Position numbers and translations under genes: made by a program. The notes below the pieces were generated by a model, which ran no database searches, was not told the origin of the DNA, and was given only the letters and a program-made list of their open reading frames with translations. A stretch of DNA of 55,361 bases from NCBI GenBank assembly GCA_964599405.1, contig CAZRED010000004.1, forward strand, positions 1 to 55,361, read 5' to 3'. Shown one piece after another: positions 39,396 through 43,973 of this stretch (positions are counted from its first letter, which is position 1; every line of letters starts with the position of its first letter). The stretch comes from an uncultured Candidatus Saccharibacteria bacterium. GTDB lineage: Bacteria > Patescibacteriota > UBA1384 > 2-12-FULL-50-11.

Positions 39396-39472
39396 AATTT
39401 AACTTAAGCTTGACAGCAGTCCCAACCATTGTGTTAGGGTGAATTGAGATAAATTACTAAGCGGGAGGTGTG

Positions 39473-42400
39473 ATGGCAAAGATGAAGCGAGGTGTGGACA
39501 ACGAGGCAACGGATATCGCGCTAAAGCCGGTGGAAATTTCGGTAGATTTACCGTCGAGTAGACTTGCCCCCGCTAAAAAAGCCGGCCTGAAAGTGCAGAG
39601 GCGTTTCACTAAACCCGGCGACGATGTTTTCAGTTCCGTCACCTGGGAAAAACGCGATACCGTTATCTCCGATGAAAAAGGTAATATCATTTCCCAAATC
39701 ACCGACCTGGAAGTGCCGTCTACCTGGACACAGCTCGCCACCGATATTTTAGCCTATAAATACTTACGTAAAGCCGGCGTCCCCACTAAAGAGGGTCGGG
39801 AAACTTCGGCCCGCCAAGCGATTTATCGGATTGCTCACACCATGGCTGATTTCGGGGAAAAGTTCGGGTACTTTGCCTCAACCGCTGAACGAACCAGCTT
39901 TGAAGACGAACTAATGTATATATTGCTCCACCAGCGAGCCGCTTTTAACTCGCCGGTCTGGTTTAACTGTGGCTTGTATCACCAATATAAAATTGCCGGC
40001 AGTGGCGGTTCATTTTATTGGGATTTCAAGGAGAAAAAAGTCTTGGAGGCCGCAACCGCTTACCGCAACCCCCAGTGTTCTGCCTGTTTTATTCTGTCAG
40101 TTTCCGACACCATGTCGGGCATCTTCGATCTACTCAAGACTGAATCGCGCATCTTTAAGTACGGCTCTGGGAGCGGCGCAAACTTCTCAATGCTGCGTAG
40201 CCGCGTGGAAAAACTTTCCGGCGGCGGTACCTCCAGTGGGATGATGAGCTTCTTGCGGGTATTTGACCGAGCAGCGGGAGCGACTAAATCCGGCGGCACT
40301 ACCCGCCGGGCTGCCAAAATGGTGGTGGTGAACATTGAACATCCGGAAATTGAAGATTTTATTGAGTGGAAAGTTAATGAAGAAAAGAAAGCCCAAGCCT
40401 TAATCGCCGCCGGTTATGAATCGGACTTTAACGGCGAGGCTTACAGCACAATTTCCGGCCAGAACGCCAATAACTCCGTTCGGGTGACTGATGAATTCAT
40501 GAAAGCCTACGAAAACGACGGTGAGTGGCAAACCCGCATGGTGACCACCGGCGAGCCGTACAAAACCTACAAAGCCCGGGATTTGATGGATAAAATTGCG
40601 CTCGCGGCCTGGCAATGCGCCGACCCAGGTCTGCAGTTTGATACCACAATTAACGACTGGCATACTTGCCCGAACACTGACCGAATTCACGCCTCTAACC
40701 CCTGTTCAGAATATATGTTCCTAAACGACTCGGCTTGCAATCTCGCCTCGATTAACTTAGTAAAATTTATCGACAAAGCTGGTAACTTCGATGTCGCTAG
40801 CTACCGCCATGCGTGCCGGGTGATGTTTATCGCTCAAGAGATTGCCGTTGATCTGTCCAGCTACCCAACGGCTGAAATCACCAAAAACAGCCACGACTAT
40901 CGCCCGCTGGGGCTGGGTTACGCCAACCTCGGTACACTCTTAATGCTCAACGGCGTGCCTTATGACTCGCCGGAAGGCTTTGCCATTGGTGGAGCGTTAA
41001 CGGCCATTATGACCGGCCACGCCTATAAAACCTCCGCCGAGATGGCAGCGGTCAAGGGACCATTTGAGGGCTACGCTAAGAACCGCGCTCCAATGCTAAA
41101 TGTCATGCGCAAACACCGTTCGGCGGCCTACCGCATTAGTGAAAAGCACTGCCCCAACAATTTATTGGAAGCGGCGCACCAAGATTGGGACGAAGCGGTA
41201 GCGCTGGGCGAACAATTTGGTTATCGCAACAGTCAAGCCACCGTGATCGCCCCCACTGGCACCATCGGTCTACTAATGGATTGTGACACCACCGGCGTCG
41301 AGCCAGATTTTGCCTTAGTCAAGTTCAAGAAGTTGGCCGGCGGCGGTTCGATGAAAATTGTTAATAACGCTGTACCGAAAGCCCTAGAAAACCTCGGTTA
41401 TAGCGAGCAACAACGCCGGGAAATAATTGACTACGCCACCGGCACCGGTTCACTCAACGATAATACCGCTATCAATGCGGCTACCTTAAAGACCAAAGGA
41501 TTAACCGATGAAGAAATCGCCAAGCTAGAAAAAGTCCTACCAACCAGTTTTGATATTAACTTTGCCTTCAACCGAACAATCCTTGGCGATAGCCTGTTTG
41601 ACCGACTGGGCATTACCGCCCAAGAAGAGCAGAAGCCGACTTTTTCACTCTTGCGAAAACTCGGCTACAGCGGCGAGGAACTTAATAGTAGTAACGAGGT
41701 AATCTGCGGTACTCAAATGCTGGAAGGGGCGCCGCATTTGAAGAGCGAGCATTATCCCGTCTTTGACTGCGCTAATCGCTGCGGAGTGCGGGGAACGCGC
41801 TTTATTCGACCAATGGGGCACGTCCAGATGATGGCCGCGGTCCAGCCGTTTATCTCCGGCGCTATCTCGAAAACTATTAATATGCCCCACGAAGCGACGG
41901 TTGAAGAAGTGAAAGAAGTCTACATCGAGTCGTGGAAACTGGGGATTAAAGCCTTAGCCCTGTACCGCGATGGTTCGAAACTTAGTCAGCCGCTCAACGC
42001 CACCCGTGAAGAGGAGAAAGAAGAAGAAGAAAAAGCTAGCGAACCAGTGGTTGTCTACAAGCCCCGCCGTCGTCGCTTAAGCGATGAACGCCAAGCAATT
42101 ACTCACAAGTTCAGTATCGCTGGGCACGAGGGCTACATAACAGTCGGCTTGTACGACGGTGGCCAGCCAGGTGAAATCTTCATCACCATGGCCAAACAGG
42201 GGAGTGTGATTAGCGGTTTGATGGATGCCTTCGCTACCTCTATATCCATATCACTCCAGTACGGTGTGCCGCTACCCACCATCGTTAGAAAGTTCGCCAA
42301 TAGCCGATTTGAACCTTACGGCTTCACCGCCAATCCCCAGATACGGATCGCTAAATCAATAGTTGACTACATTGCCCGCTACTTAGCGATTAAATTCCTG

Positions 42401-42682
42401 TCAGAGGCCGAGCTGCTAGAGCTGGGGATTCGCTCGGACAGTCCAGCTACTTCCAGCCAAGCACCGCTAGAGTTGGAGAACGACAACACCGGCATTGCCG
42501 TGCCAATTACCGTCAAGGAGACGGAGACAGCGGCAGAGCCAGAGGAGGACGATCTGACCGTAGCAAGACCAATGGCCGTTACTGATGCACCGCCGTGTCC
42601 AACTTGCGGCTCCATGACTACTAGAACCGGTACTTGCTATACCTGCTTGTCCTGCGGCTCCACTACTGGCGGCTGCAGCTAG
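39473..42682 (+). CDS. nrdJ: Vitamin B12-dependent (class II) ribonucleotide reductase
   Basis: FNSPVWFN, QCSACFI, NPCSEY, APTGTI, ISKTINMP, YRDGSK; C-terminal TSCPD-like domain and zinc ribbon. Confidence 0.96.
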   Translation: MAKMKRGVDNEATDIALKPVEISVDLPSSRLAPAKKAGLKVQRRFTKPGDDVFSSVTWEKRDTVISDEKGNIISQITDLEVPSTWTQLATDILAYKYLRKAGVPTKEGRETSARQAIYRIAHTMADFGEKFGYFASTAERTSFEDELMYILLHQRAAFNSPVWFNCGLYHQYKIAGSGGSFYWDFKEKKVLEAATAYRNPQCSACFILSVSDTMSGIFDLLKTESRIFKYGSGSGANFSMLRSRVEKLSGGGTSSGMMSFLRVFDRAAGATKSGGTTRRAAKMVVVNIEHPEIEDFIEWKVNEEKKAQALIAAGYESDFNGEAYSTISGQNANNSVRVTDEFMKAYENDGEWQTRMVTTGEPYKTYKARDLMDKIALAAWQCADPGLQFDTTINDWHTCPNTDRIHASNPCSEYMFLNDSACNLASINLVKFIDKAGNFDVASYRHACRVMFIAQEIAVDLSSYPTAEITKNSHDYRPLGLGYANLGTLLMLNGVPYDSPEGFAIGGALTAIMTGHAYKTSAEMAAVKGPFEGYAKNRAPMLNVMRKHRSAAYRISEKHCPNNLLEAAHQDWDEAVALGEQFGYRNSQATVIAPTGTIGLLMDCDTTGVEPDFALVKFKKLAGGGSMKIVNNAVPKALENLGYSEQQRREIIDYATGTGSLNDNTAINAATLKTKGLTDEEIAKLEKVLPTSFDINFAFNRTILGDSLFDRLGITAQEEQKPTFSLLRKLGYSGEELNSSNEVICGTQMLEGAPHLKSEHYPVFDCANRCGVRGTRFIRPMGHVQMMAAVQPFISGAISKTINMPHEATVEEVKEVYIESWKLGIKALALYRDGSKLSQPLNATREEEKEEEEKASEPVVVYKPRRRRLSDERQAITHKFSIAGHEGYITVGLYDGGQPGEIFITMAKQGSVISGLMDAFATSISISLQYGVPLPTIVRKFANSRFEPYGFTANPQIRIAKSIVDYIARYLAIKFLSEAELLELGIRSDSPATSSQAPLELENDNTGIAVPITVKETETAAEPEEDDLTVARPMAVTDAPPCPTCGSMTTRTGTCYTCLSCGSTTGGCS

Positions 42683-42684
42683 TA

Positions 42685-43239
42685 ATGCCAATCTACACTA
42701 GGAAAGGGGACCGGGGAGAAACCGGCCTTCCTGGCAAGCGCCGTTTACCAAAAACCGACCCACTTTTTGAGGTGCTTGGAACCTTCGACCAACTAAGCGC
42801 TACCATTGGGCTGGCAATGAGCTTTCGGAAGGACAAAAAGTCTGCTGACGTGGTAGCTCACCTCCAGTCAATTCAGTCCGATTTGTTGGGGCTAGGAGCT
42901 TGCCTGGCCGCCGAAAAACCAGAGGATATGCCTATCTTAAAAGCCCTTGACCAAAAAGTTGCTGATTTCGAAAAAGCGATTGATAGCTGGGAGCAGGAGA
43001 CTGGTCCGCTCCAAAATTTTATTTTGGCTGGTGGGTCTCCGTTTGGAGCGACCCTACACCTGGCTCGTACCGTGGCTCGTCAGACCGAACGAAGTTACTA
43101 TCAATTAAAGCATCCAAACGAGGCGATTAGCCGCTATCTCAACCGACTGTCTGATTTTTTCTTCCAAGCCGCACGAGTTACTAACTCCCGAGAAGGTAAA
43201 CCCGAACAAATTTGGAAAAACTCACAAAATTCCCAGTAA
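42685..43239 (+). CDS. pduO: ATP:cob(I)alamin adenosyltransferase (PduO type)
   Basis: IYTRKGDRGET, FILAGG, HLARTVARQTER, YLNRLSDFFF. Confidence 0.93.
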   Translation: MPIYTRKGDRGETGLPGKRRLPKTDPLFEVLGTFDQLSATIGLAMSFRKDKKSADVVAHLQSIQSDLLGLGACLAAEKPEDMPILKALDQKVADFEKAIDSWEQETGPLQNFILAGGSPFGATLHLARTVARQTERSYYQLKHPNEAISRYLNRLSDFFFQAARVTNSREGKPEQIWKNSQNSQ

Positions 43240-43279
43240 AACTATTGACTTTACCGACTACTATTGATATATTGCTACC

Positions 43280-43412
43280 GTCAAGAAACAGGTATGTTTC
43301 TGAAGCGCTAATAGGCTTGGTTGTATCGGAAACGGTCGATCCCCTCCCGTCGTTTCCGGTACTACTAAGCTTGTTAGACGTCAAAGCAAGAGCCCGAGTG
43401 GCTCTTTTTTTT
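43280..43412 (+). ncRNA. Putative structured RNA (leader or sRNA, ~130 nt)
   Basis: TTGACT-17-TATATT promoter; 7-bp hairpin; 27-position rod with 4 G-U pairs; terminator aagagcc/ggctctt plus U tract. Confidence 0.6.
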
Positions 43413-43442
43413 GTTCGGTAGAGCTGCTATTTTAACTTGGCT

Positions 43443-43973
43443 ATGCAAAAACCCACTGCGACAATTCTTACCGTAGTAACGGTTCTTTCCCGCCTGTTGC
43501 CACACCCACCGAACTTCACCGCCTTAGGCTCTAGCGCCCTGTTTGCCGGCGGAAAAATGAGCCGTCCGTGGAACTACCTTGTGCCGTTAATTGCCTTAAC
43601 CTTCACCGATTTAATTATTGGTCTGCACGGCACAATGCCCTACGTTTATGGCGGTATTGCCGCAATTATTTGGATGGGGGAGCGGACATTGAAAAATCGC
43701 CCGACCACCGTTCGGCTAGCCACTGTGGCGTTGGCCGGTTCGACAATCTTTTTTCTGGTCACAAACTTTGGAGTCTGGGCAAGCACAGCGATGTATCCGA
43801 AAACTGCTGCTGGCTTGGTGGAGAGCTTGGTGATGGGGCTACCATTCTGGCGCAATATGGCGGTTGCCGACGTAGTTTTCACAGTCGGGTTTTTCCAGCT
43901 TTATCAATTCGCTGAACATCGTTCTGTTACAACATTATTAGATAAAAAAATCCGTCGACTTGTCACGGGGTAG
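43443..43973 (+). CDS. DUF6580 family putative transporter (S-component-like)
   Basis: SRLLPHPPNFTALG.ALFAG, FFLVTNFGVW, YPKT..GL...GLPF. Confidence 0.85.
   Translation: MQKPTATILTVVTVLSRLLPHPPNFTALGSSALFAGGKMSRPWNYLVPLIALTFTDLIIGLHGTMPYVYGGIAAIIWMGERTLKNRPTTVRLATVALAGSTIFFLVTNFGVWASTAMYPKTAAGLVESLVMGLPFWRNMAVADVVFTVGFFQLYQFAEHRSVTTLLDKKIRRLVTG

Follow-up and report, generated by a model that had tools for sequence, protein, structure and literature searches.

A conserved RNA family with an anti-Shine-Dalgarno-like loop in one class of CPR/Patescibacteria

Background

RoxS/RsaE, an RNA of the Bacillota that is conserved over a wide taxonomic range, pairs with G-rich Shine-Dalgarno (SD) sites through conserved, C-rich, single-stranded motifs, and carries several such C-rich regions on small hairpins and linkers, not on one long rod. 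Here we describe an RNA element at positions 43245-43414 (+ strand) of a contig of 55,361 nucleotides (nt) from an uncultured Candidatus Saccharibacteria bacterium (GenBank assembly GCA_964599405.1, contig CAZRED010000004.1; the whole contig is called the window below), which exposes a single C-rich loop at the tip of one long rod and lies in front of a gene for a DUF6580 membrane protein. Unlike RoxS/RsaE, the window's RNA has no Rfam match. The comparisons given below establish it as a member of a real, conserved and uncatalogued RNA family, which our searches met only in a single class of the Candidate Phyla Radiation (CPR)/Patescibacteria with ultra-small genomes.

The cuckoo/RSs0680 (CcsR)/C14 small RNAs (sRNAs) of the Alphaproteobacteria combine variable stems with a conserved C-rich loop, CCUCCUCCC, and are presumed to act by occluding ribosome-binding sites (PMC4615179, in the part of the text available). 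In these RNAs as in ours, the stems undergo compensatory changes and only an anti-SD-like loop is conserved (partial text of PMC4615179). However, the cuckoo RNAs consist of two to four adjacent short hairpins, each with CCUCCUCCC, whereas here there is one rod of 28-37 base pairs (bp) with a single loop, CCCCUCC(CG/UU), and CCUCCUCCC is absent from 43245-43412. The hosts differ as well, Alphaproteobacteria in one case and a CPR class in the other, and the cuckoo RNA RSs0680a is bound by Hfq (PMC4615179, same portion), whereas Hfq was not found in the genome of the window. By analogy of design, the RNA would work like the cuckoo family without being a member of it.

PmaR of Agrobacterium tumefaciens is likewise "spoon-like", with a long stable stem and a C-rich end loop through which it binds its targets, and a four-letter change in this loop abolishes regulation (PMC6234868, as far as the accessible text goes). 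The PmaR loop is no anti-SD, however, and that portion of the text has PmaR acting mostly away from ribosome-binding sites (PMC6234868). The two RNAs have no sequence relation, and PmaR is known from Agrobacterium, not class-wide.

With cobalamin riboswitches the element shares a setting beside genes of vitamin B12 metabolism or uptake (nrdJ, a PduO-type adenosyltransferase gene and DUF6580). Cobalamin riboswitches need a multi-helix junction core and a B12 box, whereas the window's RNA is a single hairpin that matches none of the riboswitch models and has no fixed position relative to B12 genes.

In the open-access literature we found neither a described regulatory RNA for CPR/Patescibacteria nor a description of this RNA; one Patescibacteria text, in the part available, treats riboswitches only as prospective tools. 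If expressed, the RNA would give a first point of entry to post-transcriptional regulation in these bacteria, which are reduced and depend on hosts. It would also be a separate evolutionary instance of a design, with a variable stem and a constant C-rich loop, that is familiar from Alphaproteobacteria and Bacillota. The locus further serves as a caution for annotation, since structured RNA ahead of a putative B12 transporter gene need not be a riboswitch.

A transcription unit with a long rod and a C-rich loop

The element is bounded by transcription signals of its own. The putative promoter P1 (43245..43273, + strand) consists of TTGACT, a 17-nt spacer with TG, and TATATT, with 10 of 12 consensus matches, and would be a strong promoter of the sigma-70 type. 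Taken alone it means little, as promoter-like sites are not enriched here (2 found vs 1.8 expected in the 1.8 kb scanned). The transcript would end at its own intrinsic terminator (43388..43414), AAGAGCC-CGAGU-GGCUCUU, in which a 7-bp stem at 43388-43406 is followed by eight U. Between promoter and terminator stands the long rod (43305..43381), the core of which pairs 43308-43334 with 43351-43377 in 27 pairs (22 Watson-Crick, four G-U and one U-U, the last at 43322/43363), with pairing reaching 43305/43381. In the window it is interrupted by single mismatches only, and at about -43 kcal/mol on its own it is one unbranched, very stable helix. Its tip is a 16-nt apical loop, GUCGAUCCCCUCCCGU (43335..43350), with the core CCCCUCC, which we presume to be the functional element. 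A small 5' hairpin, AGAAACA-GGUA-UGUUUCU (43284..43301), was read from the sequence and the fold. It is kept in the closest relative (L002) and missing from two loci of the same genus (L003 and L004), and is thus lineage-specific and no core part of the RNA family.

These parts had all been noticed in an earlier sequence-only reading of the window, and the promoter, 5' hairpin, 27-pair rod, loop and terminator were each recovered base for base. The same reading had preferred an RNA from the + strand on account of the G-U pairs, and both measures of strand agree with it. The fold of the + strand has -61.2 kcal/mol (z = -6.77; equalled by none of 200 shuffles) and that of the - strand -42.8 kcal/mol (z = -2.70), while the covariance model of the element (R1) scores 87.1 bits on the + strand against 32.5 bits on the - strand.

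In the 716-kb genome the element is single-copy: a DNA search and the model both lead to one place, and a second model match is the opposite strand of that place. A dispersed repeat, which would have undone the proposal of an RNA gene, is ruled out by this. A leader peptide is ruled out as well: the 69-residue open reading frame (ORF) at 43212-43421 covers the covarying stems, and where GGAGG plus UUG occurs in genus g4, stop codons follow in L028.

Conservation within the window's family

The taxonomic family of the window comprises 19 genomes, and 20 family sequences were compared for promoter, loop and gene order. R1 together with DNA searches located the rod in 14 of the 19 genomes. Reading the DNA upstream of DUF6580 revealed the same loop on a diverged stem in four others, so that the element is kept in 18 of 19; in the remaining genome, G018, which is 80% complete, neither the RNA nor DUF6580 was seen. 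Among DUF6580 loci from metagenomes, 2 of 80 had the RNA.

The stem changes in the manner of a maintained helix. In an alignment of eight family sequences, both partners vary in 15 of 25 pairs and 88.4% of cells are paired, compared with 77.1% in shuffled alignments, and none of 500 shuffles reaches any of the measures. When the pairing partners were slid by one to three columns, pairing was 32-49%. The conservation and covariation whose absence, according to the sequence-only reading, would have refuted the element are both present.

The flanking signals are equally regular. A TTGAC-type -35, a 17-nt spacer and TAnnnT occur in 20 of 20 family sequences, as does CCCCUCC in the loop, and the order promoter, rod, terminator, DUF6580 is the same in all 20, with 24-60 nt between the U-tract and the ATG. 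By reading sequences and folds, a terminator or U-tract was recognized 3' of the rod in most members; in those of genus g4 the terminator hairpin is not clear, and in L041 the rod itself runs into the U-tract and serves as terminator. The distance from rod to terminator ranges from 6 to over 100 nt and is filled by unrelated inserts.

Two local variants were seen. Upstream of DUF6580 in L040 (genome G014), the apical half of the rod and the loop occur twice in tandem, about 105 nt apart, which is a local partial duplication of the RNA gene. In genus g4 (L025, L026, L028-L030 and L081), a GGAG(G) element stands some 20 nt upstream of the rod, and additional C-rich stretches, CCUUCCCC and CCUCCCCC, follow it; none of these is part of the window's RNA. 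From their sequences, these additions could pair with the loop or serve as further seeds, and a pseudoknot-type pairing between the loop and a 5' GGAGG is visible only in this genus, not in the window.

Distribution across the class

The first locus outside the window's family was reached with R1. There the RNA lies 690 nt downstream of DUF6580, in the order DUF4430, DUF6580, thioredoxin, promoter, rod (loop UUCACCCCUCCUUA), terminator and UvrD-like helicase. A hairpin scan of loci returned two more such RNAs, and at least 26 more genomes of the class have the sister form of the loop, UUUNCCCCUCCUUR. Run over the class, R1 gave no match in 132 genomes outside the family, a result that is uninformative, as a true copy in G151 was missed; because of that miss, a pattern search and a second model were used instead. 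The pattern TTYNCCCCTCCTTR occurs in 54 of 162 class genomes, compared with 8 for a reversed-pattern control. Of the loci that it returned, 15 of 30 are rods, and the other 15, without rods, are mostly the reverse complement of SD sites. The second model, R2, covers 42 nt at the apex and matched 69 of 151 class genomes at E <= 0.05, 26 of them at 30 bits or more. Since model searches miss weak matches, as in G151, these counts are lower bounds.

We examined 30 class loci, and all fold as rods of 28-37 bp with the motif in the loop, one being cut by a contig end. A P1-type consensus promoter (TTGACA-17/18-TAnnnT) stands 25-80 nt upstream of the rod in 29 of the 30; the thirtieth is cut by the contig end. 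In 27 of 30 loci the better fold is that of the RNA strand; in one the two strands tie, and in two the complement is the better. In the 42-nt apical alignment, the only one on which class covariation was counted, 9 of 10 pairs show double changes (score 0.78 vs 0.27 in shuffles) and 86% of pairs are formed, vs 58% in shuffles; MAFFT applied to the whole set recovered just five apical pairs. CCCCUCC is found in 30 of 30 class loci, a figure to be read with the collection in mind, as the loci were gathered with a pattern and a model built on that motif.

Taken together, the family is made of a short and variable 5' tail, a rod of 28-37 bp that drifts via compensatory changes, and a pyrimidine-rich apical loop of 12-16 nt, the core CCCCUCC of which is present in every collected copy, as CCCCUCCCG in the window's family and as CCCCUCCUU elsewhere. 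In a phylum-wide sample none of 144 genomes of other classes gave a match, and within the class, families f5, f11, f17 and f29 gave no R2 matches or only weak ones. We consider it highly probable that these loci form a family of independent RNA genes.

Two separate R2 matches per genome were found in G055 (46.3 and 34.0 bits), G095, G063 and G084. In G063 and G084 folds were made of both copies, and the paired matches have the loops UUUUCCCC and UUUGCCCC. Some lineages may thus keep two paralogous copies of the RNA.

No known family accounts for the element. With Rfam gathering scores, only three transfer RNAs were found in the whole window, and at E <= 10 the best match on 43150-43500 was STnc400, whose 16.3 bits fall far short of its gathering score of 80; a member of the RNA from outside the window's family gave nothing credible either. 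A known RNA family is thereby ruled out on the window, the locus and a non-family member, and the novelty suggested for the element from its sequence stands. Two general housekeeping RNAs were considered separately. 6S RNA has a long helix broken by a large central bubble; its model, RF00013, had no match in the genome at E <= 0.1, and the rod here has single mismatches only. Bacterial signal recognition particle (SRP) RNA is ruled out by the SRP searches described under the genomic setting below (RF00169 in 0 of 19 genomes, RF01854 in 0 of 1, and the Ffh M domain missing in the genomes searched).

Pairing of the loop and candidate targets

The 3' end of the 16S rRNA in the window's genome is GGAUCACCUCCUUUCU, and the loop stretch GAUCCCCUCC matches the 16S tail GAUCACCUCC in 9 of 10 letters. 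The core of the anti-SD tail recurs in the loop of the family, GAUCCCCUCC, and in that of the class, CCCCUCCUU. The sequence signals by which a base-pairing sRNA is recognized, namely its own promoter, its own terminator and no fixed downstream gene, are all present. The sequence-only reading had left two options for the locus, a new attenuator or riboswitch in place of the expected B12 riboswitch and an independent sRNA with an SD-pairing loop. The first is disfavored, since the position of the RNA is not fixed to DUF6580, and the second is our best current reading.

According to this SD-pairing reading, P1 would drive the synthesis of a discrete RNA that ends at its own intrinsic terminator. 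The rod would hold out the anti-SD-like loop as a seed, and the loop would pair, without Hfq, with G-rich SD-type sequences such as GGAGGGG and GGGAGG on mRNAs, so changing the translation or stability of the targets. We infer the transcription, the base-pairing mechanism and the target, as well as a second promoter (P2, below), from the sequence. The reading as a whole, in which 43245-43414 is a free-standing sRNA gene of about 130 nt whose product pairs with SD-type sites, comes just short of an even call, and the pairing mechanism taken by itself is put forward tentatively.

A candidate target lies close by, at the start region of the B12-dependent ribonucleotide reductase gene nrdJ. Its ribosome-binding site GCGGGAGG (39461..39468, + strand) is complementary to the loop stretch CCUCCCGU. 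The longer site GCGGGAGGUGUGAUG (39461-39473) can form eight pairs, one of them a G-U wobble, with this family-specific part of the loop, and it is a non-optimal match to the 16S tail. When the 902 ORF start regions of the genome are ranked by the energy of a duplex with the loop, that of nrdJ comes sixth. In G000 (the genome of the window), G003, G007 and G010, the nrdJ SD is ACGGGAGG or GCGGGAGG(G), which fits the family-specific CCUCCCG(U/C), and in G010 a loop with CCCGC faces an nrdJ SD with GCGGG. We regard nrdJ as a lead only. The leader of DUF4430, also considered as a target, has only about 4 nt of complementarity.

Several observations weigh against the SD-pairing reading. Any loop with CCUCC complements any SD site, which makes complementarity alone weak evidence. 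Cognate loop and nrdJ pairs are more stable than non-cognate ones (-15.5 vs -14.4 kcal/mol; permutation p = 0.003), a comparison that is confounded by relatedness, and the extended nrdJ match is present in only 4 of 15 family genomes examined, the others having ordinary AAGGAGGG sites. Many of the genomes that have the RNA lack nrdJ by the query used. In the window's genome, GGGAGGGG occurs nine times with no clear bias to gene starts, GGAGGGG sites show no clear pattern, and among the 43 genes with GGAGG the next base is G in 14, not clearly above background. In other genomes, full complements of the class loop stand before genes that are unrelated. The rod of 28-37 bp exceeds what the presentation of a seed needs, which hints at a protein partner or RNase III. 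The RNA is always directly 5' of DUF6580 in the window's family and within 2 kb of it in 12 of 30 class loci, so a functional tie to the B12 uptake operon may exist. Finally, the expression, ends and abundance of the RNA are themselves predictions.

The strongest competitor is a protein-binding or decoy RNA, in which the invariant pyrimidine loop on its long rod would bind a protein, with no mRNA pairing; a single-strand binder of the KH or S1 type, a factor for the 16S 3' tail, or a double-stranded RNA-binding protein on the rod would be candidates. Such a role would suit a loop of which 7-11 letters are invariant across families with fully diverged stems, a rod held at this length when 10 bp would be enough to present a seed, a resemblance to the 16S tail that is longer than CCUCC alone (in the window's family, GAUCNCCUCC), and the fact that no conserved mRNA target emerged. 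However, genomic linkage points to no candidate protein, the neighbors of the RNA vary, and C-rich, anti-SD-like loops base-pair in the described analogues (PMC4615179 and PMC6234868, in the parts available). We consider this a serious rival, if a doubtful one.

Somewhat less likely still is a global role as competitor or decoy, in cells that have both leaderless and SD-led mRNAs but neither Hfq nor an SRP system. One strongly transcribed RNA, kept by a whole class of ultra-small CPR bacteria and showing a copy of the 16S tail on its long rod, would then vie for SD-led mRNAs, or for a factor recognizing the 3' end of the 16S rRNA, and would set the balance of the two modes of translation initiation, with nrdJ and the B12 uptake operon among its clients.

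Relation to DUF6580 and to cobalamin riboswitches

In the window's family the RNA might instead be a cis-acting leader of DUF6580 (43443..43973, + strand; Pfam PF20221, E = 4.8e-43; start codon ATG at 43443), that is, a new attenuator or riboswitch whose terminator would gate P1 transcription into the gene. The constant order and the short distance between U-tract and ATG in the 20 family sequences would fit this, as would the flanking genes nrdJ and PduO-type adenosyltransferase. So would the regulation of DUF6580 elsewhere. In sister families of the class, a classical riboswitch of the Cobalamin or AdoCbl-II type precedes DUF6580 on its own strand at 12 of 20 loci, usually in front of an operon of DUF4430 and DUF6580, and this bears out the B12 link that had been assumed for DUF6580. 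In other phyla, 9 of 20 DUF6580 loci (L165-L184, from Bacteroidota, Proteobacteria, Ignavibacteria, Elusimicrobia and CPR) have a cobalamin riboswitch no more than 1.2 kb away.

Against a leader stands, above all, the position of the RNA, which is directly 5' of DUF6580 in the window's family alone. Elsewhere it is on the same strand downstream of DUF6580 (G031, G042, G059 and G035), convergent with it (G101, G116, G068, G038, G095, G111, G055 and G106), or on another contig or tens of kb away (G048, G061, G046, G091, G073, G032, G079, G124, G088 and G070), and G063 has the RNA and no DUF6580 match. The gene 3' of the RNA differs between families. In addition, the rod and the terminator coexist in the minimum-energy fold, and no competing pairing was seen by eye, a dedicated search not having been made. 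The spacing between rod and terminator, with its unrelated inserts, is not conserved, and there is no junction or pocket in a single hairpin of which only the pyrimidine loop is conserved.

DUF6580 also appears to have a promoter of its own. An extended -10-like element, TGCTATTTT (43425..43433, + strand), lies after the terminator and 9 nt before the ATG; in the family this TGnTAnnnT element stands 9-12 nt before the ATG, and a TAnnnT hexamer is found 11-22 nt before it in 18 of 20 sequences. In genus g2, reading of the sequences revealed a TTGnnA -35 at 16-nt spacing to the P2-type -10. We infer that this promoter, P2, would give a near-leaderless DUF6580 mRNA. Given the changing position of the RNA outside the family and this separate -10, we think it unlikely that the RNA is a DUF6580 leader or B12 riboswitch, and a cis-acting leader in the window's family is improbable in our estimate.

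As to a cobalamin riboswitch proper, its hallmarks had been noted as missing from the locus, and the search at E <= 10 on 43150-43500 agrees, having returned no match from the cobalamin clan. RF00174, RF01482 and RF01689 are ruled out by the lack of a model match; the same models do detect riboswitches at 12 of 20 sister-family loci. The fold, one unbranched rod plus a terminator, has no multi-helix junction. The genome seems to have its riboswitch elsewhere: a classical cobalamin riboswitch candidate of G000 lies on contig C1:17155-17294 (+ strand; locus L075, 1501-1640), upstream of a gene for a secreted DUF4430 protein. Its score of 27.2 bits (E = 1.6e-5 for the genome) falls just short of the gathering score, 31.5, and the relative G005 has the same riboswitch-DUF4430 arrangement at 32.6 bits. 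This candidate, too, speaks against a leader function of the RNA before DUF6580.

The least probable explanation is mainly a structural DNA/RNA element without a trans function, such as an unusually long terminator or insulator separating converging or tandem operons, or a site of RNase III processing. It could point to the rods that run straight into a U-tract (L041, G031, G055, G079 and G124), to the eight genomes in which the RNA faces the 3' end of the DUF4430-DUF6580 operon and to the RNase III encoded in the genome, but a dedicated consensus promoter stands 25-80 nt upstream in 29 of 30 class loci and 20 of 20 family sequences, termination needs no invariant loop sequence, and many members have a separate terminator after the rod.

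DUF6580 is usually 3' of a DUF4430 gene in this class. The open-access texts yielded no literature on DUF6580 (PF20221), and the riboswitch and DUF4430 context supports a role in B12 uptake, as a prediction from gene neighborhood.

Genomic setting and minor observations

The genome to which the window belongs as one contig measures 0.72 Mb and is 94% complete, and the nearest public metagenome-assembled genomes are labelled Patescibacteria, Saccharibacteria or Berkelbacteria. Upstream of the RNA are the class II B12-dependent ribonucleotide reductase gene nrdJ (39470-42682) and the PduO-type adenosyltransferase gene (42634-43239), and downstream are DUF6580 and then a convergent helicase gene of the UvrD/AddA type.

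The SRP searches found RF00169 in none of the 19 family genomes and RF01854 in none of the one genome searched. The Ffh M domain (PF02978) was detected in 0 of the 19 family genomes and in 0 of five near-complete class genomes (G038, G106, G055, G040 and G004), and no SRP54-type GTPase scored above the cut-off in the window's genome. From these sequences the SRP pathway appears to be missing from the lineage. SRP subunits are absent in many CPR bacteria according to the accessible part of PMC8080830.

The spacing of -10-like hexamers relative to start codons was tabulated for 451 genes of the window's genome. TAnnnT has a peak at -15 to -12, with 22, 24, 31 and 45 genes at the successive offsets and about 6-12 genes at others, and a GGAGG site stands before only 43 genes, a distribution that suggests that leaderless or near-leaderless mRNAs are common in this genome.

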